Program-made: the position numbers and the translations under genes
NCBI GenBank assembly: GCA_039810085.1
Contig: JBDHWG010000009.1
Span: 12,609 to 76,608 of the forward strand
From: Anaerolineae bacterium
GTDB lineage: Bacteria > Chloroflexota > Anaerolineae > Epilineales > JAHCIE01
DNA length: 64,000 bases
Reading direction: 5' to 3'
The notes under the pieces: generated by a model
What the model was told of the DNA's origin: nothing
Seen by the model: the letters and a program-made list of their open reading frames with translations, nothing else
The model's database searches: none
Part shown: one piece after another, positions 1 to 20,275 of the stretch
Layout of the letters: each line of letters begins with the position of its first letter
Position numbering within the stretch: the stretch's first letter is position 1

Positions 1-16
1 TAGAGTTATGCACCCG

Positions 17-67
17 TGAATAACCAGTTATGCAAGAATGAATATCTAGATATTCACTGGTGAATAT
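17..67. promoter_or_regulatory. Operator-like palindrome TGAATATCTAGATATTCA (39-56) flanked by additional TGAATA(A/T) half-sites (17-23, 61-67), immediately upstream of the minus-strand HTH gene 73-426
   Basis: Perfect 18-bp inverted repeat plus direct half-site repeats read directly in sequence; position matches an autoregulatory operator for the adjacent HTH protein. Confidence 0.4.
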
Positions 68-72
68 CAGCC

Positions 73-426
73 TCAAAATCTCTGTGTCACTCGGTATTTG
101 AGGCGATAGACATTCGTTTTTCCCTGACCTCTTCGCTCAATTTCCAACAATCCCGCTTCCTGCAACTCACTAATGGCACGCGCAATCGTCGGCTGAGACG
201 AGCCGATGTCTTTCGCCATGACGTCTTGCCCTGGGAACACGAGATCATTGTGCCAGGCGTACGAGAGGAGCTTGCTGTACACGACCTTCGCGTTGGACGA
301 GATACTTGGATTGTTCAAGATGAAGTTGGGAATCTGGGTGAAACCACCAGCGCTGATCGGGTCAAACCCTTCAAGGATGATGTTCTGACGTTCTTGAAAT
401 CGATTGATCTGGGCAAGTTTCTCCAT
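73..426 (-). CDS. Winged-helix/HTH_36-like DNA-binding protein (replication-initiator-like N-terminal domain)
   Basis: 117 aa; motif FTQIPNFIL...AKVVYSKLLSYA...FPGQDVMAKDIGSSQPTIARAISELQEAGLLEIERRG typical of PF13730-type HTH found in plasmid/phage Rep-like proteins. Confidence 0.55.
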   Translation of the reverse strand: MEKLAQINRFQERQNIILEGFDPISAGGFTQIPNFILNNPSISSNAKVVYSKLLSYAWHNDLVFPGQDVMAKDIGSSQPTIARAISELQEAGLLEIERRGQGKTNVYRLKYRVTQRF

Positions 427-461
427 GTTGTTGGGTTGCTGGTTTGCTGGCTAACTGGTTT

Positions 462-848
462 TTAGACACGTCTCCCGAGATACTCATCTACTGCTTCCTG
501 CAACACTTCATAATCGTTTCTATCTGTTTCAAGCGCAAGCCGCTTGATTGCCTTGATGCTCTCCGATGAGAGGTAGCTGGTAAACTTCTTTCCTGGTGAA
601 CTGACTTGCGGGCTTCCCTGCTTGATGGGTTGCCGACTTACCGGCTTCCCTCTTTGCTGGATAACTGGTTTGCTGGCAACCTGTCTTACTGGTTTAGAAG
701 GAATCTGGTTAACGGGTTTTATGGTTTGCGGACTAGTCGGCAAAACAGCGATCTGACTTTCTTCTTTACTGGTTTGCTGGTTTACAGGTTTGCTGGTAAA
801 CAGCTGCTGATCTAGGGCTGCTAGTCTTGAAAATGGGTCGTTGCTCAT
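462..848 (-). CDS. Hypothetical protein with KPV(N/R/I/S)Q tandem repeats and C-terminal ribbon-helix-helix-like segment
   Basis: 128 aa; repeats KPVNQ/KPVRQ/KPVIQ/KPVSRQ; C-term SESIKAIKRLALETDRNDYEVLQEAVDEYL resembles RHH/CopG-like DNA-binding fold; 12-bp gap to upstream ATPase gene. Confidence 0.4.
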   Translation of the reverse strand: MSNDPFSRLAALDQQLFTSKPVNQQTSKEESQIAVLPTSPQTIKPVNQIPSKPVRQVASKPVIQQRGKPVSRQPIKQGSPQVSSPGKKFTSYLSSESIKAIKRLALETDRNDYEVLQEAVDEYLGRRV

Positions 849-860
849 GGGCCTCCTTTC

Positions 861-1742
861 TTATTTTTTCTTTTTCGGCTTGCCAATATTATGTAATCGT
901 TCCTCGGCTGCGGTTTCAACCGTGGCGCGGTCAATGACTTTCTTGTCGTTGAGAAACGCTAAGAGTAAGGAATTGTCAGCCAAGATATTTGCTTCACGGG
1001 GAACACCTTCTGAGTGTCTAAAAAGAGCATCGAGCGCGGCCGGCTCGAATGGATGTGCTTGATTGCCACTGGCCACCCGCCAACGAAAATCTATCATCTG
1101 AGCGAGTTCCTCGGTGCCAATTGGATCAAGCGTCGAGGCCATGGCAATGCGCGATCGGAAGTTACGCGCCATTGGATGGGTGATCTTATTGCGCAGCTCC
1201 TCTTGTGCGAAGAGGACGAGCTGCAACAACTTCATCTCATTCGTTTCATAGTTGATTAGTTGACGCAGAAGCTCAAGTAAGGGGAGTCTGAGGGTCTGTG
1301 CCTCATCAATGATGAGTACAACCGTCTTGCCTTCCTCCACAGCCTTGTCGTAGAGAAACATCTTGAAGATGTCGAGATTGTCCTTGTACGACCTGGCAGT
1401 CTTATAGAGCTGAAACTCGGCGATGATCGAGCGGAGCAGATTGTTGGTGGTGGGATAGTTGGGGTTCGTCAATAAGACGGACTGGTAGCCTTTGTCTAGG
1501 AATTTCTGATGGAGTAGGCGAGCCAAGGATGATTTTCCAACGCCAGTGTCGCCAAAGACTATGGTGAGGCCCTTTTTCGAATCGACCGTGAATTCAGTTT
1601 TTCCAAGTGCAGTGGAGTGGATCGGGGTGAGGAAGAAGTAGCGCGGGTTGGGAACCGTGCTAAATGGCTCTTCTTTCAGACTGAAGTAACTTAGGTAGGG
1701 GACTGGCATAAGTTGCGCGAACTCACATACCAGCTTACGCAA
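861..1742 (-). CDS. AAA_22 family ATPase (ExeA/TniB-like, ORC/Cdc6 clade)
   Basis: 293 aa; Walker A GDTGVGKSS, Walker B VVLIIDEAQ, N-terminal FSLKEEPFSTVPNPRYFF motif typical of ExeA-like ATPases. Confidence 0.75.
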   Translation of the reverse strand: MRKLVCEFAQLMPVPYLSYFSLKEEPFSTVPNPRYFFLTPIHSTALGKTEFTVDSKKGLTIVFGDTGVGKSSLARLLHQKFLDKGYQSVLLTNPNYPTTNNLLRSIIAEFQLYKTARSYKDNLDIFKMFLYDKAVEEGKTVVLIIDEAQTLRLPLLELLRQLINYETNEMKLLQLVLFAQEELRNKITHPMARNFRSRIAMASTLDPIGTEELAQMIDFRWRVASGNQAHPFEPAALDALFRHSEGVPREANILADNSLLLAFLNDKKVIDRATVETAAEERLHNIGKPKKKK

Positions 1743-1784
1743 CTTGGGCCATTCATGTCAAGAAGGGAAATGAGAAACAAGACT

Positions 1785-2033
1785 TCAAAGCAAATCTTCC
1801 AGTTGCTCAGAAGAAAGACCGGCGTCTTTGATGATGCGCATTTGAAGACCTCGGCCAAGAGTGCGGTTGTGAATAGGGATAACCAGGGATTGAGGATGTC
1901 CAGGTTTCGACATTGAGAGATGGCTTCCGGTTTGCCTGCGTTTTATGAAACCGGCACGCTCAAGTGCTCGGATAAGTTCGGTGGGACGAAGAGCTTTCAG
2001 CCGGTCGGTCACGTCGGTCCTTGACGCGATCAA
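1785..2033 (-). CDS. hicA: HicA family toxin (mRNA interferase)
   Basis: 82 aa; LRPTELIRALERAGF...RQTGSHLSMSKPGHPQSLVIPIH..L..G.L..I.KDAGL matches HicA/YcfA fold; TTG start at 2033 (GTG alternative at 2012). Confidence 0.75.
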   Translation of the reverse strand: MIASRTDVTDRLKALRPTELIRALERAGFIKRRQTGSHLSMSKPGHPQSLVIPIHNRTLGRGLQMRIIKDAGLSSEQLEDLL

Positions 2034-2277
2034 GCCAGGCTTCCAAGTGCTCGGGGATTGTCCGTCCGTCTTCTTTATCCACCTCTAGCACCAATTGGAG
2101 TGCGTCCTCGATCATCGTCAAAGCCTCATCAATGGTTCGCCCCTCAGAGTACGCAGGCGGATAGTCAGCCACTTCGATGAGGTAGCCGCCTTCTTTCTCA
2201 GGGGTCAATCGGTAGGTCATACCGTCTTTGGTAATTTGGATAATTTCTGCTGGTTGTTTTTGGACCATATGCGTCAC
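1960..2277 (-). CDS. hicB: HicB family antitoxin
   Basis: 105 aa; YRLTPEKEGGYLIEVADYPPAYSEGRTIDEALTMIEDALQLVLE typical of HicB RNase H-like domain; overlaps hicA by 53-74 nt. Confidence 0.7.
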   Translation of the reverse strand: MTHMVQKQPAEIIQITKDGMTYRLTPEKEGGYLIEVADYPPAYSEGRTIDEALTMIEDALQLVLEVDKEDGRTIPEHLEAWLDRVKDRRDRPAESSSSHRTYPST

Positions 2278-2336
2278 TGCCTTTCAGCCACTATTATAAC
2301 ACGCGGCAGCTACCGCTGGCTTTCTTCCGATCCGGA

Positions 2337-2365: not shown

Positions 2366-2445
2366 TCTATAGCGACGAGGGATTTGTTGTACTAGCAAGC
2401 ATATTAAAGGCAAAATAACAGAAAGAGCGATGTCCGAGAGGCAGC

Positions 2446-3062: not shown

Positions 3063-4343
3063 ATGGCCGAACCAACGAAATATGTCATGATGGACGATGC
3101 CGCTGAAATCCTAGGCTTGTCACCCGTCCGGATCCGAAAGCTGATTAAAGAGGGTGCCATTCGGACAGCCGGATCCAGCCGTGCACCCTTACTCGCCTGG
3201 GATGATGTTTGTCGGATAGCAGGAGCTCAACGTCCTCCTTGGGCACTTCTCACAAATGAGCTTGTTCATGGCTCTGTCTCGCCAGAAGGCTTGTTTCTCG
3301 CGAAACTAGAATCCGCGGATACCAACACTTCATTCGAGACCAACCAGGTCGCCAAAGGTCACTGCATTGACTGGATGAAAAAGATGCCGGCCGGTTCAGT
3401 TCAAACCGTTGTGACCTCTCCTCCATACTGGGGTGTACGCCGCTATAAAGGGGAGCAGGAGGTGCTCTGGTCTGATGGTACACGATGCGCATTTGGAGCA
3501 GAGGATACCCCTGAAGCGTATGTCCGGCATACAATGGATATCCTTAGGCACCTCAAGCGTGTGCTTCGCGATGATGGCGTCATCTGGTGGAATATTGGTG
3601 ACTCGTACCAAACGCGAACACACATTCGAGAGGGGAGTGTCGAACGGCTCCATGCCCTTGATGGACGTCGACAAGATGGGTGGAAGGACTATCCCCACAA
3701 GCGCTATTCAGCAGGGCACGATTACCTCAAGGACAAGGATCTCACCCTCGTGCCCTTCGCGGTCGCGATGGGTGCGCAACATTTAGGCTTCTGGGTGCGC
3801 TCAGTCATCATCTGGAGCAAAGAAAACACACTCCCTGAGCCGGTAAAAGATCGGCCGACCACCTCGCACGAGTATATTTTCATGCTAGTTAAGTCCCGCT
3901 TCTATTACTACGCGCATGACGTTGCTAAGGACCAAACCCGGTCAACGAAATGGGCACCCGAAGATATAGACGGCCAGCTAAAGAATTGGCGCACCGTTTG
4001 GACATTTGCGACTGCTGGGAGTGAAGACCGCAATCATACAGCAGCATTTCCTGAAGAGTTACCCAAGCGATGCATAGTAGTCAGTTCGAGACCGAACGAT
4101 CTCGTCTTTGATCCCTTTGCCGGTTCAGGAACAACGCTCGTAGTGGCAAAACGTCTTGGTCGTCAATACTTCGGCTGTGATCTGAGCGACGAATATGTTG
4201 ACGAGGCGTCTGCTCGACTGGAGCGAGAACGAGGAAGCCTTCAAGCCACACTTGAAGATGCGCTCCCACCAACAGAACTTGAGCGTGTTATAGACCAAGA
4301 GTCTGAAGCTCAGCCAAACAGAGAGCAGCTGCCACTCTTGTAA
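3063..4343 (+). CDS. DNA methyltransferase (beta-class N4-cytosine/N6-adenine) with N-terminal HTH_17/excisionase-like domain
   Basis: 426 aa; N-term DAAEILGLSPVRIRKLIKEGAIRT HTH; motif IV TSPPYWG precedes motif I FDPFAGSGTTLVVA (beta permutation). Confidence 0.85.
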   Translation: MAEPTKYVMMDDAAEILGLSPVRIRKLIKEGAIRTAGSSRAPLLAWDDVCRIAGAQRPPWALLTNELVHGSVSPEGLFLAKLESADTNTSFETNQVAKGHCIDWMKKMPAGSVQTVVTSPPYWGVRRYKGEQEVLWSDGTRCAFGAEDTPEAYVRHTMDILRHLKRVLRDDGVIWWNIGDSYQTRTHIREGSVERLHALDGRRQDGWKDYPHKRYSAGHDYLKDKDLTLVPFAVAMGAQHLGFWVRSVIIWSKENTLPEPVKDRPTTSHEYIFMLVKSRFYYYAHDVAKDQTRSTKWAPEDIDGQLKNWRTVWTFATAGSEDRNHTAAFPEELPKRCIVVSSRPNDLVFDPFAGSGTTLVVAKRLGRQYFGCDLSDEYVDEASARLERERGSLQATLEDALPPTELERVIDQESEAQPNREQLPLL

Positions 4344-4358
4344 GCTGTTGAGGAGAAT

Positions 4359-5678
4359 CTATAAAACTGTTCTAAGCCAGGAGCCCAGTCGAGTAACTTC
4401 TGCCGGTATCTGTGACAGGTCGAAGCCATACCCATATACCATACGGTCATCCGCTGTACGGGCTTCCTGGAGGGTCGCAGTCCCATCCGTGAGGAAGATG
4501 AAGCCTCCAATGGGCGCGTTGTATGCGCTCATGTAAGCCGCAAGCTGGTAATGATCACTGCTATCCGGTTCAAACTTATACTTCACATCAAGAAGTGCCG
4601 CTGTCGTCTGAAGGGTTGTGGACGGACGAATAACGATGTCTGGCTGAAGATTGGCGTTGAATCTGCTTGGCACGGCTCGCTGGTACATAAATGGGCGCCC
4701 GCCCAACCGCACATCATCGCGCCATGAGCGAACGGCGTACATTGGCTCAAGCGCACGCGCAACAATGTTGCGAACGGCTCGCTCAAACAACCGCTCCATC
4801 GGAAGACGCAACGGCGGATACTCAATCTCCGGATGACTCGCTTGGGTTAATGCAAATCGTTCCAGTAGAAGGCGACAGAAGCGCAACACCGGTTCATAGT
4901 ATTCACGGTTCGGCGGAATCCCTCCCCGCTCCTCCAGCAATCGACAGACCGACACCGCCTCGGCTGCGGATGCATACTCGGTGATCGGTGGTAGCGTAAG
5001 CATCTGAGAATACAGTCGTTCGCGGGTTGATGCGGTTAGGGTATCTGCAGAGGCGGCAAGAATAGAGAGCGTTGTTGCAATCACCTTGTTCAGGGAAATG
5101 TCGAGGGTATACCGAACAATACGTTGATCTATCAGGAGTTGACCTCGTTCAATGCTGGTCGTCAGACTCTCGAAAAAATCAATTTCCCCCTCGGGGAACG
5201 CAGAGAGAATCCGTCGGTCCTGATCACCACCCGCCCAACCAAGACGCACAACCTCCTCCAACGTACTCAGCAATTGATCCACCAAGACATCAAGAATGGT
5301 GACGTCGGCTTCAAGGCCATAGTACACCTGCTGATCGGGTATGGTCACGGTTGGTTCATCGGCGAGAAGAAGCAGGCGAACCAATGAGACCGGCCCGCAC
5401 TTGGCATCAACCTGGAGAATAACCCCGTCTCCCAGCAACTCGGTGGTTACGGTGGGTGGACTCTTGGCCGCAATCGTGTGATAGCCGGCAACGGTGGAGA
5501 GGGAAATATCAACAACGTCGAGGGCAAGTGGGTTGATAACTAAGGGCAATTGATCTGTGGGAACTAGATACCGACCAGTCTCGCTAATACGAATCCAGCG
5601 GACGAGCTTACCGCTTCTCGTCACGGCGTTTTCAATGGCAGCAAATTGAGTGTCGGGGGCCATACCAGTATTCGGCAA
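4359..5678 (-). CDS. mcrC: McrC-like 5-methylcytosine-specific restriction system nuclease subunit
   Basis: 439 aa; C-terminal PD-(D/E)xK signature PDIVIRP...LLDVKYKF; 1-bp gap to mcrB stop. Confidence 0.75.
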   Translation of the reverse strand: MPNTGMAPDTQFAAIENAVTRSGKLVRWIRISETGRYLVPTDQLPLVINPLALDVVDISLSTVAGYHTIAAKSPPTVTTELLGDGVILQVDAKCGPVSLVRLLLLADEPTVTIPDQQVYYGLEADVTILDVLVDQLLSTLEEVVRLGWAGGDQDRRILSAFPEGEIDFFESLTTSIERGQLLIDQRIVRYTLDISLNKVIATTLSILAASADTLTASTRERLYSQMLTLPPITEYASAAEAVSVCRLLEERGGIPPNREYYEPVLRFCRLLLERFALTQASHPEIEYPPLRLPMERLFERAVRNIVARALEPMYAVRSWRDDVRLGGRPFMYQRAVPSRFNANLQPDIVIRPSTTLQTTAALLDVKYKFEPDSSDHYQLAAYMSAYNAPIGGFIFLTDGTATLQEARTADDRMVYGYGFDLSQIPAEVTRLGSWLRTVL

Positions 5679-5679
5679 T

Positions 5680-7380
5680 CTATGATCGGAATGTAGCCAT
5701 CAACGGATCAACCTGATCGGTCACAACCGATTCCTGGCGTTGCGTCAAAAACAACTGAAGAGATGGTCGCAAAACGGTCATATACCAGTCCATCAGGTCT
5801 GGTTTATCCTTGATGTCGACGAAATGGGCGTGTCCGATTGGATACTTGGTCAACTCGGTGATCTGCCGCATGACGGCAACGATCTCCATTGCATCGTCCT
5901 CTGTGAATGTACTGTGATCCACAAGAAAATCAAACATCTGCTTGTAGCTAACGGCAAAATCGACAGTGCGAAATCGGGAGAGCAATGCGTAGTCGAGTGG
6001 GTACGTCAAGCGGTCGAGTGTGTTCATGGTTGCAATGAGCAGCAGTTGTTTGGGGATGACAATGTTGCCCCCGCCGTGTGGTAGCGGCAAAGACGTGCCC
6101 CGATAGCCCATCTCGATCAGATGAAACCCCTCTCCAAAGACGGCTGCAACATTGGCCCGATTCAGTTCTTCAATGATCACCACTGATGGTCGATCAGCAT
6201 TACGCTGACAATGCCGAAGAAACAGTCCGGGTTCAGCGGCGAAGTCGAGCGCACCTTGGGTCAGTTTCGGTGTGAGACGTTGGATAAAATCGCCATACCG
6301 CCATTCTTGATGAAACTGGACATGGAGAACGCGCTCCGCCCAGAGAGCGGGATCTGCTGCCTCGGTCGCCTGAAGGTAATCCTCCGCAATATGGACTGCG
6401 CTATACGACTTGCCCGTTCTGGGAGCGCCCGTCAACAGAACGTTCAGTTGACCCTTCTGGATTATTCGTCGCGTAAGTTCAATTGGATCAGTTGCATGCT
6501 CCTGGCTAATCCCCAGAAGCTGCGCGTTAAATTGCATTTGCGCCATGCTACTTGCCTCTCGTAGTCGGATCTCAAAAGGATCGACCTGGCCAAACAAGAT
6601 AAGGTGGTTGTATTCCTCTTCGTCACGATCTTGTTCGAAATCGTCTGTCTGAAGGTTAGGGGCTGATGATCGTTGCGTAAAAAGAAAATACAGTTCCTCG
6701 TCCGAAAGCGAGAGTCGTGACCGCACCAAATGCGCAAGCTGGTCAAAGTTCGGCTGGACCTCGAAAACTTCATTACGGCAACACCAAATGACAAATGGAA
6801 TCCAGGGGATACTACAAAGCCTATGCTCATCAGGCCCAAAGAAAATCGGTGCTGCATCAAGGTATTTAGGTCGCAGTCGAAGGCGCGCACCTTGACCTTG
6901 TTCAGCCTCGATAAGCTCGAAGAGAAACTCACGCGGTCTCAAACCGTATCGTTGCTCCTGCTTATCGAACCAATCGTTCTTGAGTCTGGTCCAGATAACG
7001 CTTCGGTTACTGTCCTCTTTGCGCAGGAGATACCGCCGGTTATCACTGATTGGGAAAAATAGGGGGTAGCCAACAGTTCTTGAAACGCCTTGAGGTGCAG
7101 AGGGGAGGGGCGGTTGATTATTCTGAAGGGTGCCATTTTCAACGCTTAATTGCACGAGTGAACTAAATGAGTCGCTGATCCACGCTAGATATCGAAGTGC
7201 GTCCGTCGGCTTGTTCGCTGACGTGATTTTTACCTCGCTGGCAATATTCCCCTCGATTCTAGCACCGTCATACTTCAATGCTAGAAAGACGATGATATCA
7301 CTATGTGCTGTTCCGAAGAGCGAGCGAGCTGCTCGGGCAATGAGTTTTGGTTTCAAGCGAAACACGGGACCGGACCTCAT
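5680..7380 (-). CDS. mcrB: McrB-like AAA+ GTPase subunit of type IV restriction system, with unassigned approximately 300-aa N-terminal DNA-reading domain
   Basis: 566 aa; LLTGAPRTGKS Walker A, VVIIEELNRANVAAVFGEGFHLIE and LLLIATMNTLDRL motifs characteristic of McrB. Confidence 0.85.
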   Translation of the reverse strand: MRSGPVFRLKPKLIARAARSLFGTAHSDIIVFLALKYDGARIEGNIASEVKITSANKPTDALRYLAWISDSFSSLVQLSVENGTLQNNQPPLPSAPQGVSRTVGYPLFFPISDNRRYLLRKEDSNRSVIWTRLKNDWFDKQEQRYGLRPREFLFELIEAEQGQGARLRLRPKYLDAAPIFFGPDEHRLCSIPWIPFVIWCCRNEVFEVQPNFDQLAHLVRSRLSLSDEELYFLFTQRSSAPNLQTDDFEQDRDEEEYNHLILFGQVDPFEIRLREASSMAQMQFNAQLLGISQEHATDPIELTRRIIQKGQLNVLLTGAPRTGKSYSAVHIAEDYLQATEAADPALWAERVLHVQFHQEWRYGDFIQRLTPKLTQGALDFAAEPGLFLRHCQRNADRPSVVIIEELNRANVAAVFGEGFHLIEMGYRGTSLPLPHGGGNIVIPKQLLLIATMNTLDRLTYPLDYALLSRFRTVDFAVSYKQMFDFLVDHSTFTEDDAMEIVAVMRQITELTKYPIGHAHFVDIKDKPDLMDWYMTVLRPSLQLFLTQRQESVVTDQVDPLMATFRS

Positions 7381-7664
7381 TCTGGGGGAGTGTCGGTGTC
7401 GAGAAAATAATCAATTGGCTTGCCGTACAGGGAAGCAAACGCCTCCAATTCGAGGGCATCCACGCGACGCTCGCCATTCTCGGATTTAGAGATAAACGAC
7501 TGGGGTTTGCCAAGCCGCTCAGCGACCTGTTCTTGCGTCAAGCTGGCGTCAAGTCGCGCTTGGCGAAGGCGCTTGAGAAACTGGCGATAGCGGCTGTCGT
7601 AATCCTGAAGGCTCACACCCTGCCTCAAATAGAGTGACATGAGAGTTGGCAAGTTGGCAGGCAT
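7377..7664 (-). CDS. XRE-family HTH transcriptional regulator, translationally coupled to mcrB (ATGA overlap)
   Basis: 95 aa; LTQEQVAERLGKPQSFISKSENGERRVDALELEAFASLYG is a canonical HTH_3 domain. Confidence 0.75.
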   Translation of the reverse strand: MPANLPTLMSLYLRQGVSLQDYDSRYRQFLKRLRQARLDASLTQEQVAERLGKPQSFISKSENGERRVDALELEAFASLYGKPIDYFLDTDTPPE

Positions 7665-7787
7665 TATGGCTCAGGGCAGAATTTATCCCAAGTTGGGATA
7701 TTGCTGATACAGGCAGTAGGATGACGGGCCTACCGACAGCAGCTGGGGGCAATGCACATTCATACTTGACAACGAGAGATAGAAATG

Positions 7788-7812
7788 GTACAACTCTACC
7801 ATGCAAGTTGTA
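7788..7812. promoter_or_regulatory. Inverted repeat GTACAACT-N9-AGTTGTAC upstream of vapB (putative operator)
   Basis: 8-bp perfect arms read in sequence about 22 nt upstream of the vapB RBS AGAGG. Confidence 0.3.
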
Positions 7813-7833
7813 CATGTTATTAGAGGTACAGAC

Positions 7834-8094
7834 ATGAAGGAATACATTAGCAGCGTCAGCCCGAAGGGGCAGATCACTATCCCCGCAGAGATTAGGGAAT
7901 TGCTAGGGATCAAGCCAAAGGATAAAGTGATCTTTGAAATGGGTGAGGAGGGAGTCAAAATCCGTCCTCTCGCTGCTCGGCTTGAAGCGAGCTATCAAGC
8001 GATACCCGCACTTACACCCGCGAGAACGCTCGAAGAGATGATGGAGATTGCTCATGAGGATCACGCACAGGAGGCTGCCCAAGAGGGCTTATAA
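7834..8094 (+). CDS. vapB: AbrB/MazE/SpoVT-type antitoxin (VapB-like)
   Basis: 86 aa from ATG 7834 (RBS AGAGG 8 nt upstream); GQITIPAEIRELLGIKPKDKVIFE swapped-hairpin motif. Confidence 0.75.
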   Translation: MKEYISSVSPKGQITIPAEIRELLGIKPKDKVIFEMGEEGVKIRPLAARLEASYQAIPALTPARTLEEMMEIAHEDHAQEAAQEGL

Positions 8095-8100
8095 CACATT

Positions 8101-12781: not shown

Positions 12782-13336
12782 TTATATCAGCCCCAACTCC
12801 GACAGCCACGACTTGCAGCCGTGTTCACAGATGCCGTCTGGTTCCACGGTGCAGCCATCGGTGGCCTCGCACTCGCCGTCCATCATCCACTCCATCAAAG
12901 TTTCCAAGTCTGGGACTTGCCGACGTTCATCGTTGAACGTGCTCACCCACAAGTGGGTGTTGGGATCCCAAGACATGCGGAAGCGTGGCTTCGGTGGATA
13001 TTCAAGAAAGCGCCTGAGCACGATCTCAATGTCCGCCATAAGTGGCGCCTGAACGATATGCACATACCGCCGGCTGGATTGCTCGATGTACATCTGACAA
13101 GCCACGGCTCGCGTGCCGTCCTCAGTCACCTGTAGGAGCTCGTACCCGCCAAAGGTCTCCTCAACGTCGCCAAGCCATGCGGGGTCCGCTGGCTGCGGTC
13201 TATCAACAACAAGCAACCCAACGAGCCAATCACGACGGCCGGGCTGCATCGCTAGGCCATAGCCGGAGAAGATATCCGGGACGTCGGGATGCCAAAGCCC
13301 GTAAACGGGGTCATTGGTCGAGGTCGCAAGCGTCAT
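12782..13336 (-). CDS. Hypothetical protein (184 aa, Cys-rich C-terminus)
   Basis: Last gene of a tightly coupled 4-gene minus-strand operon (ATGA overlap with upstream gene). Confidence 0.45.
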   Translation of the reverse strand: MTLATSTNDPVYGLWHPDVPDIFSGYGLAMQPGRRDWLVGLLVVDRPQPADPAWLGDVEETFGGYELLQVTEDGTRAVACQMYIEQSSRRYVHIVQAPLMADIEIVLRRFLEYPPKPRFRMSWDPNTHLWVSTFNDERRQVPDLETLMEWMMDGECEATDGCTVEPDGICEHGCKSWLSELGLI

Positions 13337-13545
13337 CGTTCCTCCTGAAGTGTGATGTTGATCGCCGCGGCGATCTCGGGTGGGAGATCATCGAGTGATT
13401 GCGTGTATTCCAGACCGATATAGTCGTCTCCCCAATTCGCTTCGTCGAGGTCGACCACGGCAAACATGACGGGGTTATCGCCGCAGAACACCGCAGCCAC
13501 GATGCCGTTCTCGACCTCAATCACGATCTGCGGCACATCATTCAT
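13333..13545 (-). CDS. Hypothetical small acidic protein (about 70 aa, start MNDVPQ)
   Basis: Start ATG overlaps stop of upstream gene (GATGAATGA); acidic composition. Confidence 0.4.
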   Translation of the reverse strand: MNDVPQIVIEVENGIVAAVFCGDNPVMFAVVDLDEANWGDDYIGLEYTQSLDDLPPEIAAAINITLQEER

Positions 13546-13768
13546 CAAGTTCCTCCTTGAGTATTGGCAGTCGAATACGGAACGTGTAGGACACAACGAG
13601 GTCGGCGTCCAGCTCCTCATCTGGTTGGACCACACCACGTTGTAGGTCGAATAGCAGGTTCTCAATCGCCTCCTCTCGGTCTTCTGCTTCGTTGTTGACC
13701 ACGACAACGGTCGCATCGGACCGCTTCAACTCATCCAGCATCTGTAGCGCCGTTATGGTTCGGATCAT
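13538..13768 (-). CDS. Hypothetical small acidic protein (about 76 aa, start MIRTITAL)
   Basis: 1-nt gap to upstream gene; internal start chosen over long ORF extension. Confidence 0.4.
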   Translation of the reverse strand: MIRTITALQMLDELKRSDATVVVVNNEAEDREEAIENLLFDLQRGVVQPDEELDADLVVSYTFRIRLPILKEELDE

Positions 13769-13769
13769 C

Positions 13770-14126
13770 TCAGTAGTCCTCCGGGAGCAAAATGGTTGTG
13801 ACTGAGCGATCCGCCTCGGTGATGACGTAGATCTTCGTCCCCGTTCTGAGGTGATAGGCACTCAAGATCCGAAAGCCCCGTTTGACGGACAATTCGTTCT
13901 CCGCCTTGTCCTCGTCATCGAGGTCTCCCCAATCACCACCAATATGGCGGCCGAGAAACTCCGCAGGGTGTTGCCCTGCCTCCTCTAGCGCCGCTAAGGC
14001 GCCAGGGGTAGCCACAATCTGGCCGAGGTCAAAGAGCTGTCTTGCCATAGATAGGTCTCCTTTGGGCAGAATGCCCGGTAGGTAATCTACTACCCCCGAA
14101 ATGGAGTAGCGCCCCGAGAACCTCAC
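13770..14126 (-). CDS. Conserved hypothetical protein (118 aa) of a type recurrently seen on plasmids/ICEs
   Basis: Motifs LGRHIGGDWGDLDDEDKAENE and KIYVITEADRSVTTILLPEDY; family not assigned with certainty. Confidence 0.45.
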   Translation of the reverse strand: MRFSGRYSISGVVDYLPGILPKGDLSMARQLFDLGQIVATPGALAALEEAGQHPAEFLGRHIGGDWGDLDDEDKAENELSVKRGFRILSAYHLRTGTKIYVITEADRSVTTILLPEDY

Positions 14127-14290
14127 GAAGAGATACCCAGAGCGCTACACCAACTGGGAAAGAAGCTATTCAGGTTCACCGCAAGGTTTCAAGGTGCAGA
14201 AATCAATGTGTGTCAGAAACGCAACAATCAGAGAGCCATCTCCCTGGTGTTACAGTCTCAAACACTCTCCAGTATATCCTGTTTCAGAAC

Positions 14291-14875
14291 TCAAAATCCC
14301 AGGCCACGCTCTTTCAGACTTGTGAAACCGCTTCGGCCAACAACAATGTGGTCGAGCAACTCCACTTCAAGGATCCGCCCGGCTTCAACTAGGGTCTTGG
14401 TCACCCGAACGTCATCTCTGCTGGGCGTCACATCGCCCGATGGGTGATTATGAACCATGATAATGGCGTGGGCGTTGTCGAGAATGGCCGGCCGAAACAC
14501 CTCAGCGGGGCGAACGGGGCTGCTATTGAGGGTGCCCTGGTACACCATCGGACAGGAGATGATCCGGTTCTTGGTGTCGAGTGTAATGACGCGGACCTGT
14601 TCTTGGTCAAGATCCTCCATCTCAACCCGAACAAATTCATAGGCATCACGGGGACTGGTGATCTGAAGTGCATCCTCCCGAGGTCGCCCGGTCTTTGCCT
14701 CATAAAGGCGTGAGGCTTCGGCGATAAACCAGCGTAGGAGGTGGACAAACTCGGCTTCATCGGGCCGCAAGAAACTCATTTGGGCTTCATGGACTCGTCG
14801 GACTCGTCGTTCTTGGGGCAGCGGCATAGTCGAGCCAGTATAGCATATGGGGTGTAGGACTGGTGTTGATATCAC
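14291..14875 (-). CDS. radC: RadC-like JAB/MPN domain protein
   Basis: 194 aa; JAMM motif HNHPSGDVTPSRDD and C-terminal LKERGLGF; start uncertain (GTG 14875 or ATG 14827). Confidence 0.8.
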   Translation of the reverse strand: MISTPVLHPICYTGSTMPLPQERRVRRVHEAQMSFLRPDEAEFVHLLRWFIAEASRLYEAKTGRPREDALQITSPRDAYEFVRVEMEDLDQEQVRVITLDTKNRIISCPMVYQGTLNSSPVRPAEVFRPAILDNAHAIIMVHNHPSGDVTPSRDDVRVTKTLVEAGRILEVELLDHIVVGRSGFTSLKERGLGF

Positions 14876-15068
14876 GAGTTAGTGCTCGGGACCTCCCCGA
14901 TGGGCGGGCCTCCACCTGACAAACGGGCAAGGCGTATCCGCGTGAGAGACGACCTTACAATCCGTTCTCGGGTGGAAGTATAGGAACTCATCTCTCATCC
15001 GGCGATTGGCGTCGTTGCTTGTGTGTTGACTACCGTCAGTCTTGGTGGAATCATACGGATGAGGTTGT

Positions 15069-15353
15069 GTGGCGAGGTCACGAGAAAAAGGGGGGGCTGT
15101 GGGGTTCGTCGCTGTGTTCGCGATCCTGCTGGTTGGTGGCTTCATTGCCAGCAGATTACACGGTCGTATCGTGGTCAGCAATCTAGCGATCTCCATCGTT
15201 TCGATTGCTCTGCTGCTGCTCGTCTACCTGATGCTCGCAAAGCTCATACTACCGGCGGTCTGGCCAAGCGCTGATGTCATCTCGACGCTGTTATTGACGA
15301 TTGTGATTGTAGGGCTCCTCTCGCGTGGTATCTTTCGGTGGCCGGGTATGTAG
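15069..15353 (+). CDS. Possible small membrane protein (94 aa, about 3 hydrophobic helices)
   Basis: Only hydrophobicity pattern; no family. Confidence 0.2.
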   Translation: MARSREKGGAVGFVAVFAILLVGGFIASRLHGRIVVSNLAISIVSIALLLLVYLMLAKLILPAVWPSADVISTLLLTIVIVGLLSRGIFRWPGM

Positions 15354-15554
15354 AGGGCGTGATTGAGGTACGTTTCTCGTGTAGCGGGTCGCCGTGTACA
15401 AGATGGTTCTGTTGCGCCAGAGCTGCCGCACTCCGCTCTCTCACTCCTCGTTAGTCGCCTATCGGCTCCCTCCTCGTCGTTCGCTCGCTCCGTTTGACCT
15501 TGGTAGGGTTGATGCAATGTATGACTAACCACGTACAGACGGGATATTGACCAT

Positions 15555-16535
15555 GTGACTTATAATGTCTGCATGACTACAGAACATGGTCGCCAAGTCT
15601 ATGACGAACAATTTAAGGACGAAACAGTACGGGCTCTCGGTGAAAGTGGAATGACACTTACTGCATTTGCTCGGGTTCGAGGGATACCACGAACAACCTT
15701 GTGGGATTGGAAACACGGAGGCATTCAGGGAGAAGAAGCTGTAGGAAGTCCAAGAAGCCTCCTATCCACTGAAGATGGGGAACGACTGCCAACTCGTCCT
15801 AAATTAGGTATATTTATTGACGACGAACCACTCAAATTTAAAAAATGGGAGAGAGTTTTTACACTGGAAGGCTTTGAAAGTCTCACTCCAGATCAAATGC
15901 TCCATGATGGCATGTCGGATACTCAAACTATTCAAGCTTTAGATCAATGGATGGATTTACTAATTCATCTTCCTGACCGAGCTCTCAAAGATGTTGAGAT
16001 TGTGGTCATCGATCAGTTCAATTTCTCTCAGTATCTACAGATGAAAGCAAAACACTTAATAAATCGACTTCGTAGCGTTAACACAATGGCATGGGTTTTG
16101 GAAACTAGTGGAGTGGTTGAGCCACATGTATATGAGGGAACAAATGCTGTTCTTGACGCGCTTGATACCACTCAGGCAATTGACCTAGTAGAAGATGCTC
16201 CATTAACTTTATCAGCTCGTATTCAAGCATTTAAAATATTTACATTGACCCCATTCCTTGAAGCACAAAAGGCCGATACAGTAAATGATGATGAAAAATA
16301 TAGTCCTTCGGAAGGATTGAACAAATTAATAAGTCACAGGAAATTCAATGAAGCACTGGCTGCTATAGGGATATCTGAGAGAGAGTTTTTTAGCATTTTA
16401 GCACTTAAGCGAGATGATGACCTGCGCCCTATTGTGCATGATTTAGGGAATCTCATGGGGCATATGATACTTGATCATGGTGATGAATATTACACAATGT
16501 CGGTAGACAAGCTGCGACGGCTTCTTCGAAGGTAA
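15555..16535 (+). CDS. Hypothetical protein with N-terminal IS3-OrfA-like HTH (HTH_Tnp_1-like) fused to an unassigned AT-rich-encoded domain
   Basis: 326 aa; YDEQFKDETVRALGESGMTLTAFARVRGIPRTTLWDWK resembles IS3/IS911 OrfA HTH; remainder of gene markedly AT-rich relative to surroundings. Confidence 0.5.
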   Translation: MTYNVCMTTEHGRQVYDEQFKDETVRALGESGMTLTAFARVRGIPRTTLWDWKHGGIQGEEAVGSPRSLLSTEDGERLPTRPKLGIFIDDEPLKFKKWERVFTLEGFESLTPDQMLHDGMSDTQTIQALDQWMDLLIHLPDRALKDVEIVVIDQFNFSQYLQMKAKHLINRLRSVNTMAWVLETSGVVEPHVYEGTNAVLDALDTTQAIDLVEDAPLTLSARIQAFKIFTLTPFLEAQKADTVNDDEKYSPSEGLNKLISHRKFNEALAAIGISEREFFSILALKRDDDLRPIVHDLGNLMGHMILDHGDEYYTMSVDKLRRLLRR

Positions 16536-16588: not shown

Positions 16589-16987
16589 TTACCGTCGTGC
16601 CCATTGTTCCAGTGTATCTATGACACGTTTGATAGCCGAAACGCACCTTTGTGCATCGCTTACCGACACGTCACGCTCTGCGTTATGAATAATGTTGTTC
16701 CTCTTCTTGATGGCCTCAGCAACGACTTCAATATCGGTCTCATTTATACCTGCTAGTCCTTTGATCGTGCCAAGGCCAATGTTCACAAACGCGCTTAGCC
16801 CCATGTGTTCAATGAGTTTATCGAGGTGGTCCTGATTGAGCGAGGAAGCACCTGGAAGCCGGGTGATGGCCGTCGGAGCAACTTGTCGTGCAGTTGCCTC
16901 CAATGCTATGACAGCCTCTATAATCGCTATACGTCCGTTGCCTTCCTCTAGGTGGCTAATACTATTCGCTATAAGAACCTCACGCAC
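16589..16987 (-). CDS. Small HEPN-motif protein (KKRNNIIHN, Rx4H)
   Basis: 132 aa, all-helical; Rx4H motif near C-terminus as in HepT/DUF86-like HEPN toxins. Confidence 0.5.
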   Translation of the reverse strand: MREVLIANSISHLEEGNGRIAIIEAVIALEATARQVAPTAITRLPGASSLNQDHLDKLIEHMGLSAFVNIGLGTIKGLAGINETDIEVVAEAIKKRNNIIHNAERDVSVSDAQRCVSAIKRVIDTLEQWARR

Positions 16988-17101
16988 GGGAGGCTTCTTG
17001 TTACTGTCAACAAGTTGTTGAAGCTCCTGCCAGTTCGTGCTACCTAGTGGAGTCGATAACCTGGTGCCTACTTTTGCCCCTGCTCGGGAACCGATCTCGT
17101 G

Positions 17102-17644
17102 CTATTCGTGCTCGCTGTAGTAAGTCAAGCCAACATCGCCTATCCTTCTCATCGGAGGTTCAAAAACCAATGGACGCCATTTGCCATCTTCATCTAGCCA
17201 GAGTGAATGACCACAACTGTTAAATAGTTCGACGTATGGGCTTACTGGATCAACCGGGAGCGTCTCAAGCCAGTATTGTTTCAGGACGTTTCGAACGTAA
17301 CCTGCGAAGCGGTTGTAGGTTGTCGAGACAATCACCCAGACCAGCCGATAAAACTCCTTTAGCTCGTCAGTTATCTCGCCATCTCGAAGTGCTTGTATTA
17401 CTCTGGCATTTGGTGTCGGAAGATCTGTTTCGATAACGAGATCGTGCCAAAAATAGGCGGTTTGATCGGTCGGATCGTCGGTGTAGAGGATATTGCCTGA
17501 AGGCGCTCGGACAGAGAGCCAAACGGAGTATATTCCATTCTCGATGGTGAACTGCAATCGATTAGTTTCTACGAGTGGATCAGAAGGTGAGATCCACAAG
17601 GACTCCCACAGCATGAGGGATATCTTCAACTGCATGGTTGTCAC
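17102..17644 (-). CDS. Hypothetical protein (180 aa), upstream partner of small HEPN gene
   Basis: No recognisable motif (no GSx9-13DxD nucleotidyltransferase signature). Confidence 0.45.
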   Translation of the reverse strand: MTTMQLKISLMLWESLWISPSDPLVETNRLQFTIENGIYSVWLSVRAPSGNILYTDDPTDQTAYFWHDLVIETDLPTPNARVIQALRDGEITDELKEFYRLVWVIVSTTYNRFAGYVRNVLKQYWLETLPVDPVSPYVELFNSCGHSLWLDEDGKWRPLVFEPPMRRIGDVGLTYYSEHE

Positions 17645-17707: not shown

Positions 17708-18001
17708 TTAGGTGGTCTGATGCTGCCTCTTGAGTTCGTCTAGGCGCTCCAAAATCCACATACGAGCCAATGTGGTTGGCCCAATCCCTTTCTTTTTCGC
17801 CAGAGTGCGGAGTTCCTCCAATGTATCTGGGTCAAGCCGAACGGTCACACCGCCAGAGAGATTCTTGGCAAACCTAACATCTACGGGCTTCCATTGATGC
17901 CAGTAGTCAGTAAAGCTATGCGTATCCCAAAACGCTGCCTCTTCCTCCCTAGTTTTGAAGTCTGGGATTGGCAGTGATGTCTTCTTTGATGTATCGGTCA
18001 T
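17708..18001 (-). CDS. brnA: BrnA antitoxin (CopG/RHH-like)
   Basis: 97 aa; DPDTLEELRTLAKKKGIGPTTLARMWILERL typical of BrnA. Confidence 0.75.
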   Translation of the reverse strand: MTDTSKKTSLPIPDFKTREEEAAFWDTHSFTDYWHQWKPVDVRFAKNLSGGVTVRLDPDTLEELRTLAKKKGIGPTTLARMWILERLDELKRQHQTT

Positions 18002-18285
18002 GCTGCGTGTTCACCCCCTTTGTCTCTTTGGTAATCTCTTCTCTCTTTCTTATCTGCGGATCGAGCGGTGACGGGATAATAAACGCCCTGACCCTCTGGA
18101 TCGAGAACAACGGCAAGCATACGTCCATCGAGCGTTGGCCCAATGACCATAATGCGCCCTTTGTAGCTCTCGCGAATGATATAATCGCCCTGGCAAACAT
18201 CTTCAACGTCCTGCTGTGTGACCCCGTGCCGTGCAATATGCTCCGTGTTCCAGGTATCCCAAAGAAGGCGAGCAATGACTATCAT
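17998..18285 (-). CDS. brnT: BrnT toxin (RelE-like fold, DUF497)
   Basis: 95 aa; WDTWNTEHIARHGVTQQDVEDV...RIMVIG...RMLAVV typical BrnT; ATGA overlap with brnA. Confidence 0.75.
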   Translation of the reverse strand: MIVIARLLWDTWNTEHIARHGVTQQDVEDVCQGDYIIRESYKGRIMVIGPTLDGRMLAVVLDPEGQGVYYPVTARSADKKERRDYQRDKGGEHAA

Positions 18286-18287
18286 AC

Positions 18288-18318
18288 AACGAACGCATCA
18301 TAACATAATGCGTTCGTT
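18288..18318. promoter_or_regulatory. Inverted repeat AACGAACGCAT-N9-ATGCGTTCGTT immediately upstream of brnT start (putative operator)
   Basis: 11-bp perfect arms read in sequence, 3 nt from brnT ATG. Confidence 0.3.
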
Positions 18319-18652
18319 GAAACAAGGGGTTCGGTTGTACTCTATGTCGCCTAATGCTCATTTTACGTCATGAGGGCATAGTGGGGTTTTAGGCGTTGGG
18401 ATGAGGTTTTTTCAATTATGGAGAAGACGGGCGCAAGAGGGATGAGCCGAGTTTCAACCTATAACCGTCGGTCGAGCTGGCTCTAGGCCACAAAAAAAGA
18501 GAACTGACGACAGGAAGACTTGGGAGTAAAGAGAGCGCGTTTCGCGCAGAAGCACCAGTTGGCGCACTCTTCGTCCATTGTCGATCCTTTTTCTTGTCGT
18601 AGTTCTCTTTCTTCAGCGCTCCAAGCGCTGACCTCATTCCTCGCGGATGATT

Positions 18653-19471
18653 TTACTCGGCCGGGGTCGCGCCCGCGTTCTGATCGCGCATGTGGTTCTC
18701 AAGGATCTCCACAAGAAGGTGGACTTCAGCAGAACTGAGGAGGTACCACCACCCGGCAAGGTTGACCACTTTGGTAGCAGTCTGAGTAGTAGGCTCGTCT
18801 TCGCCCCGGAAAACGCTCATCGTCGCCCTCCTCTCATCCAGAGCCTTCCCAAGCTTCACTTGGAGGTCCGCATCCAGAAGGTACTCCTTGCCCTGGAGGG
18901 TGATCGTCACATGTGGGGGCTGAAGCGTCTCGGGGATCTCGAAGGGCTCGATGATCTCGTTCTCCCTCTCGGTCTTGAGTCTGAGCGCCCATGGCTCCCA
19001 ACTCTCCCAGAGGTCGGAGATGATCTTGTTGTCCGGGGTGCGCTTCCGCGGCAGCTTGTTCTCCTTCAGAGGTGTATCGAGGTAGGTGTGAAAGATGTCC
19101 GGTATGCGCGTCGGCGTGTACTTGTTGTTCTCGTACACGCTTTTCTCAATCAACGCGTTGATCAGCACCTGTTGGCTCGGACTGGCAGAGTCATAGATTT
19201 CGAGCATCGATGAGATCAGGTCGAAAGTGGAGGGACCGGCCTCCTCATCGGCGTTGATGCCTAGCGCCTTCTTCTCCACCAGGTCGACCTCCAGCTCATA
19301 TGAGATCACCACCTTTCCGCGCACGGTCTGCACCTCTCCCGCTTTGATTCTGCGGTTGAGCTCCTCTCTGGAGATCCCCAGGTGATTCGCCGCCTCATTC
19401 AAAGTCATGTTCTTGCTATCTACCGCCGTCATAGCCATCGCTGTCTCCTTCGGGCATTCTGCCCTTTGCAT
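18653..19471 (-). CDS. Hypothetical protein with N-terminal HTH_17/MerR-excisionase-like HTH
   Basis: 272 aa; MTLNEAANHLGISREELNRRIKAGEV; remainder unassigned. Confidence 0.5.
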   Translation of the reverse strand: MQRAECPKETAMAMTAVDSKNMTLNEAANHLGISREELNRRIKAGEVQTVRGKVVISYELEVDLVEKKALGINADEEAGPSTFDLISSMLEIYDSASPSQQVLINALIEKSVYENNKYTPTRIPDIFHTYLDTPLKENKLPRKRTPDNKIISDLWESWEPWALRLKTERENEIIEPFEIPETLQPPHVTITLQGKEYLLDADLQVKLGKALDERRATMSVFRGEDEPTTQTATKVVNLAGWWYLLSSAEVHLLVEILENHMRDQNAGATPAE

Positions 19472-19869
19472 GTTGTTACTGTCCCAAATAGAACAGCGCC
19501 CAGAGACCTCATTGTGAGATATCCAAGCGCTGTCCTATTCAGGCAAGGAGACGGTTGAACCGATTGAGTCAATTATTTGTCCGCAAAGAATTAATGTGCA
19601 TGCAAAACAGAGAAACATCTGAGACGCACTGCCTCTGTTTCTCAATCCGCAACCTCATATTATACCCTATAGTCTGATTTATGTCAATACCAACTCCCTC
19701 TCGTTCCCTACAGTCCCCCCTCTTCCTAACCACAGTCGAGGCAAAACCACCCCTATGGCCTCCACTTCCCCGCTCTCATCTTCCTGGCAGCGGCCACACT
19801 GACTGCCTGCGGCAGTCAGACCTCTTCGGCAAACCGCCGAAGGAGCACCCGGAGCCCGAAGCGCCGTAG

Positions 19870-20140
19870 CGGAGCCGTCCTGTGGCGAAGCGGTCAGCCG
19901 GAGCGAGCAAGCGACCGGCGCGAAACGAGCGGGGTACAAGCGGACGAGGCCAGGCGAGCAGTCTGACGAGGTTCGGGGAGTCAGTCTGCGAGCCGACTAG
20001 GGCCGAAGGCCGCAGCCCGCGAGTGCAGCAGAGGAAGCAGCGAGCGAAGGCCAGCGAAGCCACGAAGACCGGCGCAGTGGAGGCGCGAAGGGTCGCCGCG
20101 AAGCGAGCGAAAGCCCCGTGCTAACGGGGCTTCAGAGGGC
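19870..20140. repeat. GC-rich non-coding tract with at least 6 GCGAAG/GAGCGAA motif repeats and several hairpins
   Basis: Direct reading: GGCGAAGCGG, GCGAGCGAAGGCC, CAGCGAAGCC, GCGCGAAGGG, CGCGAAGCGAGCGAAAGCC; hairpins CTGACTGCC-TGC-GGCAGTCAG (about 19797) and GCCCCG-TGCTAA-CGGGGC (about 20115). Confidence 0.3.
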
Positions 20141-20275
20141 GCGGACGGAGGCGGTAGCTGGTTTGCCGGCTGTCAATACGTGTGTATACTCAGAGGTGAG
20201 GCCACTATCACATCTGGAACCGGATGGTTGTCCGAAACGGCACGGCAATTTGAGAGACCACATTGCGTATCAAAC

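Follow-up and report, generated by a model that had tools for sequence, protein, structure and literature searches.

A low-GC defence and toxin-antitoxin island probably inserted in the radC gene of an uncultured Anaerolineae bacterium

The locus and its composition

The stretch analysed here (hereafter the window) comprises 64,000 nucleotides (nt) of contig JBDHWG010000009.1 (positions 12,609 to 76,608, forward strand; assembly GCA_039810085.1), assigned to an Anaerolineae bacterium of the phylum Chloroflexota. An initial annotation described its first ~20 kb as a low-GC accessory island rich in defence and toxin-antitoxin (TA) genes, and this description is supported by composition, by synteny and by an allele of the target site that lacks the insert (the empty-site allele). 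We find that positions 1-20272 very probably form the right-hand part of an island that was acquired horizontally, measures 23.3 kb or more and is integrated at codon 326/327 of a host gene for a 438-amino-acid (aa) fusion protein with the architecture DinB_2-UPF0758_N-RadC(JAB). The features that define the island and its right end are the following.

1-20272, unstranded: visible right-hand part of the island, recognized by low GC, tetranucleotide distance, absence from relatives and leftward extension in contig L002
19740-20180, plus strand: GC-rich (65%) non-coding tract with nested inverted repeats and a strong hairpin at 20112-20131
20273-20281, plus strand: right junction, where AACATGGTG of the window is aligned with AACCTCGTG of the uninterrupted allele
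20276-20620, plus strand: 3' remnant of the host DinB_2-RadC gene, 114 aa as called (P0121), with 92% identity to RadC of the related genome L007

The low GC content is readily confirmed: it is 0.516 in 1-20150 versus 0.650 in the remainder of the window (0.516 versus 0.651 when the division is placed after position 20272), and a two-segment maximum likelihood model puts the change-point at 19746. The sliding GC and tetranucleotide analysis that had been suggested as a check demonstrates that composition and codon usage are not uniform but differ sharply between the two parts. The tetranucleotide L1 distance to the bulk at 25-64 kb is 0.48-0.63 in every 2-kb bin left of 20 kb compared to 0.16-0.26 in the bins to the right, that is, 2-3 fold higher in the island than in the host part; the GC content at third codon positions (GC3) is 0.553 +/- 0.097 in island genes (n=24) versus 0.817 +/- 0.015 in host genes (n=9). 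The coding fraction of the 20-kb island part is 82%.

Insertion into the host radC gene

The radC gene in the window encodes only residues ~117-236 of the 236-aa RadC of L007 (92% identity), and its 5' part is found nowhere in the window. When start-codon variants of this truncated RadC were compared with a protein collection, the 114-aa P0121 (20276-20620) matched, and the 90%-identity cluster of P0121 includes two informative proteins, P0126 and P0122. The first of these, encoded on contig L094 from a different metagenome (ERZ27282907), is a DinB_2/DUF1706-UPF0758_N-RadC protein of 438 aa without any interruption, and its sequence across the breakpoint (here and below marked with a slash) is '...ADAANLV/MLEMSLL...GLGF'. 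The empty-site DNA of L094 is 97.4% identical to window positions 20273-20620; the intact gene reads GCT AAC CTC GTG/ATG CTG and the window TCA AAC ATG GTG/ATG CTG, with continuous identity from 20279. This places the breakpoint at 20273-20279, some ten residues past the start of the JAB domain.

The second protein, P0122 (347 aa), provides the other side of the break. Its residues 1-326 are identical to those of P0126 and are followed by 21 foreign residues, TLVTQCRLLHPLPGTSNQIAR, and a stop codon; its host portion ends at Val326, the same breakpoint that is seen at the right junction. P0122 was found on one contig only, of 203,421 bp, equal in size to the longest of the contigs that encode proteins of the window, so that the 5' half of the broken gene appears to sit on the same 203-kb contig as the window. 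Thus, both junctions flank a single target, the right one read in DNA and the left one known only as the protein P0122; a search of the Joint Genome Institute (JGI) metagenomes with a degenerate left-junction pattern yielded no match. Taken with the empty-site allele, these observations show that foreign DNA is inserted in radC and is variably present in the population.

The position of the breakpoint changes the reading of the right border. The initial annotation placed it near the GCGAAG tract, at 19.5-20.15 kb; this tract (19776-20272, 65% GC) indeed belongs to the insert because the breakpoint lies beyond it, but the border itself is ~120 bp further right, at 20273-20279 inside radC. For the same reason, of the two RadC/JAB proteins that had been listed as cargo, RadC #1 retains this status, whereas RadC #2 (20180-20620) is the 3' remnant of the disrupted target gene. 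The left border had been predicted to lie outside the window, in agreement with contig L002, which extends the same sequence 3046 bp to the left of position 1; hence the lower bound of 23.3 kb on the size of the island. The reported lack of an integrase, a tRNA and border repeats holds as well: domain scans, tRNA and repeat searches detected none of these in the window, including any repeats linking the borders or the GC-rich tracts.

Given that the source is a metagenome-assembled contig and that the change of composition is abrupt, the GC step could, in principle, represent an assembly or binning chimera of two organisms. However, the GC step or the breakpoint is spanned by nine or more independent short-read contigs, which stem from other samples and assemblers and match the window at 100%, apart from a single mismatch in one of them. 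Contig L095 (ERZ27299003) covers 18064-20487 with no mismatch; L097 (18437-20237), L098 (18353-19906), L099 (18435-19981) and L096 (17589-19758) cover the step at 100%; and L090-L093 jointly cover 19858-22068 across the radC breakpoint, with the one mismatch, in L090. The left end of the window is covered by L001-L006. Data sets with the occupied site are ERZ27299002-5, ERZ27268162, SRR14610235-47 and SRR8929703-4. Furthermore, the two halves of the broken gene match the intact allele exactly at the break. Because independent contigs span both the step and the breakpoint, we consider a chimera to be excluded for all practical purposes.

Related genomes and the host radC gene

Relatives were sought among species-representative genomes, with the host-type major facilitator superfamily gene beside the GC step as the anchor. 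The closest ones are Anaerolineae metagenome-assembled genomes (MAGs), namely, L007 (85% amino acid identity), L010 (83%) and L008; their synteny with the window spans the stretch between ~34.7 kb and RadC #2 and breaks off there. This comparison, which had also been proposed as a check, gave matches up to radC without any of the island genes; across ~80 related loci, neither the island genes nor its non-coding tracts were found. In L007, L008 and L010, radC is uninterrupted, and L010 has the same 438-aa fusion.

The host radC gene in this group is itself unusual in that it encodes a 438-448-aa fusion of a DinB_2/DUF1706 domain, UPF0758_N and the RadC JAB domain (P0126, P0133-P0136, L010:12540-13853). 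The DinB_2-RadC fusion is shared, at 63-81% identity, by several relatives, and L007 and L008 have a plain 236-aa form. The 3' side of radC varies, too: L007 has an extra 238-aa gene (L007:12060-12776), and L094 diverges past the radC stop codon, so the radC neighbourhood is variable beyond the island. Another contig of the same MAG as L007, L087 (JAXLWL010000012.1, 8.3 kb), ends in radC residue 115, ~27 nt before the breakpoint position, and lacks the alpha/beta-hydrolase gene that adjoins radC in L007. Its sequence is otherwise 95% identical to that of L007, so L087 probably represents a strain variant binned into that MAG and not the organism analysed here; something may be inserted in this variant at or near the same site.

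Several other candidate insertions in radC were rejected: frameshifts in long-read assemblies account for P0003 and P0076, the gene of P0068 is split, and P0078, judged by eye, looks frameshifted. Many N-terminal-only RadC fragments of different Anaerolineales share foreign tails across alleles, and these recurrent tails, considered as further islands, point to group II introns instead. The commonest tail is such an intron, present in seven JGI contigs (L103-L109), where the insert, starting GTGCGAC..., directly follows a radC codon that lies four codons downstream from the island breakpoint. In an Rfam scan of four of the intron contigs, D1-D4-7 were detected in all four and domain V/VI in three. 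L106 (L106:438-2841) contains a 607-aa open reading frame (ORF) for a reverse transcriptase-maturase-HNH protein, and the radC 3' exon resumes past the intron. We infer that at least four other recurrent tails are compatible with GTGCG read in three frames; together, these data suggest that radC is an intron homing hotspot in Anaerolineales.

With group II introns interrupting radC only a few codons away in other Anaerolineales, such an intron might be invoked to explain the break in the window as well, or else the low-GC region might be ancestral and vertically inherited. Against an intron, no group II intron RNA domains were detected in 1-21500 (Rfam, E<=1), the foreign tail of P0122 does not begin with GTGCG, and the insert consists of more than 23 kb of ordinary genes; against vertical inheritance, the relatives and the empty-site allele lack the region. 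The probability of either explanation is negligible.

Three further observations concern only the host part of the window. An inverted repeat pair at 33928-33991 / 50548-50611 (64 bp, 89%) and a direct pair at 28669-28699 / 39370-39400 (31 bp, 97%) are dispersed repeats unrelated to the island, and a SAM-I riboswitch at 58907-59047 (minus strand, 85.8 bits) is the window's only Rfam match at the gathering threshold.

Restriction, toxin-antitoxin and HEPN genes of the island

The putative defence and TA genes of the visible part are as follows.

1785-2268, minus strand: overlapping hicB (1960-2268) and hicA (1785-2012); HicA_toxin 60.5 bits, HicB_lk_antitox 26 bits
2446-2940, plus strand: DUF2321 zinc-ribbon protein; PF10083 E=1.6e-60
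3063-4343, plus strand: beta-class DNA methyltransferase fused to a helix-turn-helix (HTH) domain; N6_N4_Mtase 179 bits, PADLOC MTase_II 250 bits, SPPY motif IV, FAGSG
4359-7380, minus strand: McrBC-like pair; McrB-like GTPase (5680-7380) and McrC (4359-5678)
7801-8517, plus strand: vapBC-type pair; AbrB/MazE antitoxin (7801-8094) and PIN toxin (8101-8517)
8712-9977, plus strand: 421-aa protein with a C-terminal HEPN domain, RNNLVH at residues 347-352
11131-12588, plus strand: 485-aa single-gene HEPN protein, RSAVVH at residues 417-422, of a large family across phyla
16589-17644, minus strand: 132-aa mini-HEPN protein (RNNIIH; 16589-16987) and an upstream 180-aa protein of unknown function (17102-17644)
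17708-18285, minus strand: brnT (17998-18285) and brnA (17708-18001); BrnA 53 bits, BrnT 33 bits

Nearly all gene calls of the initial annotation are borne out; the mcrBC genes, the methyltransferase and the DUF2321 protein named there are all recovered by profile searches. McrC matches PF10117 (E=5e-17) and contains a PD...DVK motif at residues 346-366, indicative of a PD-(D/E)xK nuclease. The McrB-like GTPase contains an AAA_5 domain, matches Escherichia coli McrB structures (6hz4, E=1e-21) and has the Walker A motif GAPRTGKS and the NTLDR motif; no known domain matched its N-terminal 300 aa. The stop of the McrB-like gene is at 5680 and the start of McrC at 5678. PADLOC reports only weak REase_II matches for the pair, and its McrBC models give no match to it. 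In combining an McrB-like AAA+ GTPase with an adjoining McrC PD-(D/E)xK nuclease, the pair resembles McrBC, LlaJI and BsuMI, and the methyltransferase directly beside it is a LlaJI-type trait. A DNA methyltransferase with an SPPY motif IV is of the N4-methylcytosine (m4C) type. The island enzyme accordingly is not a C5 methyltransferase but an SPPY, beta-class enzyme, and its gene is convergent with the nuclease genes; further departures from these known systems are the N-terminal 300 aa of the McrB-like protein and the silence of the PADLOC McrBC models. Because of this unassigned N-terminal domain, the matches to REase_II rather than McrB and the neighbouring m4C-type methyltransferase, a LlaJI-like system in which the methyltransferase gives protection may be no less likely than a classical, methylation-dependent system of type IV.

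The hicAB, vapBC and brnTA pairs, likewise claimed previously, are canonical domain pairs encoded by overlapping or adjacent small genes, with nothing unusual about them except for two scores slightly under the Pfam cut-offs (see below). The hicA and hicB gene calls are also present in contig L001, and another PIN/ribbon-helix-helix (RHH) pair lies just left of the window, in L002. At the brnT locus, metagenome gene callers chose an 83-aa ORF at 17949-18200 (minus strand), in another frame than 17998-18285; it is the latter ORF that matches the BrnT family of Pfam and shares 4 bp with brnA.

Three HEPN-motif proteins had been reported, and the R-x4-H motif is indeed present in all three; fold-level support, with a four-helix fold, was obtained for two of them (421 aa and 485 aa), and the third has a weak Pfam match only. 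The RSAVVH motif is invariant in 20 homologues of the 485-aa protein. In the family of the 421-aa protein (20 sequences), the His of RNNLVH never varies, and 90% or more of the sequences retain the Arg and Asn. No relatedness between the 421-aa and 485-aa proteins was detected by BLASTP or hhalign, and by these comparisons they are not paralogues. The mini-HEPN protein and the adjacent 180-aa protein represent a possible two-gene module.

ApeA, a single-protein HEPN anticodon nuclease that acts in abortive infection (bioRxiv 10.64898/2026.01.26.701840), is the closest known system for comparison. Like ApeA, the 485-aa and 421-aa proteins are single polypeptides in which a large N-terminal region precedes a C-terminal HEPN domain with the R-x4-H motif; unlike in ApeA, their N-terminal parts are alpha/beta rather than mainly helical, and the two families show no detectable relationship to each other. 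Membership in the ApeA family is unsupported: PADLOC gave no match to the ApeA profile, there is no Pfam HEPN_Apea match in any of the 20 family members, and only some of the source labels read 'Apea-like HEPN'.

Plasmid-like genes, non-coding tracts and the left extension

The remaining annotated features of the island include genes reminiscent of plasmid replication and maintenance functions.

7-66, unstranded: three palindromic 16-bp sites TATTCACNNGTGNATA (7-22, 29-44, 51-66) with 22-bp spacing, in a stretch of 34-36% GC
73-426, minus strand: 117-aa winged HTH (wHTH) protein (HTH_36); Pfam HTH_36 E=1.2e-10, PHROG 270 'replication initiation protein' E=6e-15
462-848, minus strand: 128-aa P/Q-rich protein with no family match; C-terminus RHH-like by eye
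861-1709, minus strand: ExeA-like AAA_22 P-loop ATPase, 282 aa as called in metagenomes (L001); AAA_22 E=3.4e-21
10033-11082, minus strand: 349-aa predicted secreted protein with a Pro/Thr-rich linker; no family match
12782-14875, minus strand: operon of a RadC-like JAB protein (14291-14875), a 118-aa plasmid-family protein (13770-14126) and 127-aa and 184-aa proteins of unknown function
15555-16535, plus strand: 326-aa protein with a weak N-terminal transposase-type HTH
18653-19438, minus strand: 261-aa protein with a weak N-terminal excisionase-type HTH_17

The TATTCACNNGTGNATA sites lie directly after the stop of the wHTH gene and recur nowhere else in the window (0.44 expected by chance); they are candidates for iterons, an operator or a centromere. 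The similarity of the 117-aa HTH_36 protein to replication initiators of phages and plasmids is confined to the N-terminal wHTH of the latter, and the reading of the 128-aa protein as RHH-like is inferred from its sequence. The ATPase has the Walker A motif GDTGVGKS, scores 174 bits with TIGR03015 (ExeA-like), below the model cut-off, and shows faint similarity to ORC/Cdc6; it has no relatives in 2.9 million viral contigs. Of the ExeA-like ATPase module that had been listed among the contents of the island, the ATPase stands, and the module would sooner serve plasmid-type replication or maintenance than defence. In the operon at 12782-14875, RadC #1 is a 194-aa RadC-like JAB protein (E=1e-43), and the 118-aa family is found on 193 plasmids, 88 of them conjugative; in a Paenibacillus plasmid (L101), a member of this family adjoins an ArdC-like gene. 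The 261-aa protein has no relatives among plasmids.

A perfect sigma-70 consensus promoter, TTGACA-17-TATAAT, at 19659-19687 (minus strand) faces the 261-aa HTH gene. A weaker promoter-like site at 20163-20190 (plus strand), on the island side, faces the truncated radC, so that the JAB remnant might still be expressed. The folding z-scores of the tract at 19740-20180 are -3.2 (plus strand, a modest excess of structure) and -1.5 (minus strand), and the non-coding regions 14876-15554 and 7381-7800 are not unusually structured (z +0.6 and -0.5). The heptamer GCGAAGC is not enriched across the window (21 found versus 20.4 expected).

The left extension in L002 contains two small genes with strong ribosome-binding sites, the PIN/RHH pair and a Pro/Thr-rich secreted protein, as well as a GC-rich (~65%) non-coding segment of ~700 nt with nested long-range inverted repeats (L002:1040-1760, ~200-920 bp left of position 1). 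The minimum free energy of this segment is -355/-372 kcal/mol versus approximately -291 for shuffled sequences (z -8.1 and -9.3); the segment may belong to a replication origin or represent a large structured RNA of a new type. Rfam searches detected no match for either the GCGAAG tract or the L002 tract (for L002, at E<=0.1). The proteins encoded at L002:3122-3871 (minus strand) and 10033-11082 (minus strand) are both predicted to be secreted and contain long Pro/Thr-rich linkers. Such linkers are common in Chloroflexota proteins and would hint at a lower-GC donor of the same phylum.

Nature of the element

Several findings weigh against a single integrated defence island. No integrase, transposase, relaxase or att repeat was detected in the readable 23.3 kb. 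The junctions have AAC-NTN-GTG at the right end in DNA, the left end being implied only by the codons Asn-Leu-Val of P0122; Asn-(Leu/Met)-Val codons at both ends are compatible with a short imperfect core, so that a putative duplicated core may be read from the shared codons. The empty-site contig L094 departs from the window as soon as radC ends (L094:2369-2573) and therefore comes from a close relative rather than the identical strain. Among the island genes, GC3 spreads from 0.31 to 0.77, so the island may be a mosaic of several acquisitions; the lowest value, 0.31, belongs to the gene at 15555-16535 (plus strand), with neighbours at 0.47-0.77, and also suggests a mosaic origin. As to the cargo, all the defence functions rest on homology. 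PADLOC matched none of McrC, the HEPN proteins and DUF2321, leaving the methyltransferase as the only complete known component; the match of the 132-aa protein to HEPN_RiboL-PSP (E=3.8e-4) is below the cut-off, with the RNNIIH motif in addition; HicB scores 26 bits versus a Pfam cut-off of 27, and BrnT 33 bits versus 34.5.

As for the type of element, a tentative possibility that refines rather than contradicts the identification of a horizontally acquired island is an integrated plasmid-like or mobilisable element (an integrative mobilizable element, an integrative conjugative element or an integrative plasmid), with its own replication/maintenance module and an establishment operon, and with the recombinase and any transfer genes located further left. 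This possibility is favoured by the Rep-initiator-like wHTH, the AAA_22 ATPase with its faint ORC/Cdc6 similarity, the three palindromes spaced by 22 bp in an AT-rich stretch beside a GC-rich inverted-repeat tract, the 118-aa family in an operon with the RadC-like JAB gene, and the excisionase-type HTH near the right end. However, no relaxase, origin of transfer, type IV secretion system, full-length Rep or recombinase is seen in the visible part, the wHTH protein is just 117 aa long, a three-copy repeat is weak evidence, and the collections contain no relatives of the 261-aa protein (plasmids) or the AAA_22 protein (viruses).

The insertion site itself recalls a different class of elements. 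In staphylococci and enterococci, radC is the classical att554 target of Tn554-family transposons (10.1101/785295; PMC11769447). A Tn554-like site-specific transposon, with TnpA/TnpB tyrosine recombinases, TnpC and no target duplication, would likewise reside inside radC, and Tn554, Tn6674 and Tn559 of Staphylococcus and Enterococcus leave a truncated radC as seen here. The island, however, resides in a host of a different phylum, Chloroflexota, where the target is a DinB_2-RadC fusion gene; at a minimum of 23 kb it exceeds the usual size of Tn554-family elements, ~6-13 kb; it carries defence and TA cargo rather than antibiotic resistance; and the visible 23 kb contain no TnpA, TnpB or TnpC-like genes. 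Because phylum, size and cargo differ and no TnpABC genes are seen, the island is not assigned to the Tn554 family, and a Tn554-like transposon appears improbable.

Prophages often carry TA and abortive-infection genes, and the HTH_36 protein matches phage replication-initiator families, so a degraded prophage with defence genes could also be considered. The scanned ORFs, however, contain no capsid, portal, terminase, tail or lysis domains (Pfam, PHROG), and the AAA_22 protein lacks viral relatives; a prophage is, accordingly, highly unlikely, even more so than a Tn554-like transposon.

A further scenario, although speculative, deserves mention. The island might represent a previously undescribed Chloroflexota family of radC-targeting, integrative plasmid-like elements, functionally analogous to Tn554 with its preference for att554; such an element would break the DinB_2-RadC gene and bring its own JAB protein, its wHTH/RHH/AAA_22 module would act on the three palindromes in replication or partitioning, the ~700-nt structured element would be part of it, and the two HEPN families would perhaps be new abortive-infection systems. 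We regard this combination as doubtful, more so than the integrated plasmid-like element as such. If it is true, the unclassified, extremely stable ~700-nt GC-rich structured element (z ~-8 to -9) may serve as an origin or constitute a large non-coding RNA of a new kind.

Discussion

Like typical defence and integrative islands, the horizontally acquired island in radC has a foreign composition, is variably present, and is dense with restriction, abortive-infection-like and TA genes; the differences are its location within a protein-coding gene instead of beside a tRNA and the lack of a visible recombinase in the 23 kb. Integration would be site-specific and mediated by a recombinase that we infer to be encoded in the left part of the island. 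Judging from the domains recognized, the plasmid-like backbone would comprise, on the one hand, the Rep-like wHTH, the RHH-like protein and the AAA_22 ATPase beside the TATTCACNNGTGNATA sites and the AT-rich stretch and, on the other hand, the RadC-like JAB operon with the plasmid-family gene; the JAB paralogue of the island may in part take over from the broken host gene, radC. At least four type II TA pairs (hicAB, vapBC, brnTA and the second PIN/RHH pair outside the window) would stabilise the island. The putative restriction module would combine the m4C-type methyltransferase with a GTP-dependent McrBC-like nuclease that would have a novel DNA-binding domain. The three HEPN RNase-type proteins are probably abortive-infection effectors, with ApeA as the closest mechanistic analogy; by this analogy, the 485-aa and 421-aa proteins would each join sensor and effector in one chain.

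In its gene content, the island is otherwise typical, a fairly ordinary defence and TA island that introduces no new principle. Two of its parts are nevertheless candidates for defence testing, namely, the two widespread, functionally uncharacterised single-gene HEPN families (~420 and 485 aa) and the methyltransferase-linked McrBC variant. For the poorly studied, uncultured Anaerolineae, the locus provides a cleanly documented insertion in which the site is known both occupied and empty and the two junctions are identified. It also shows that radC, a known transposon hotspot in Firmicutes, serves as a landing site for mobile DNA in Chloroflexota as well.

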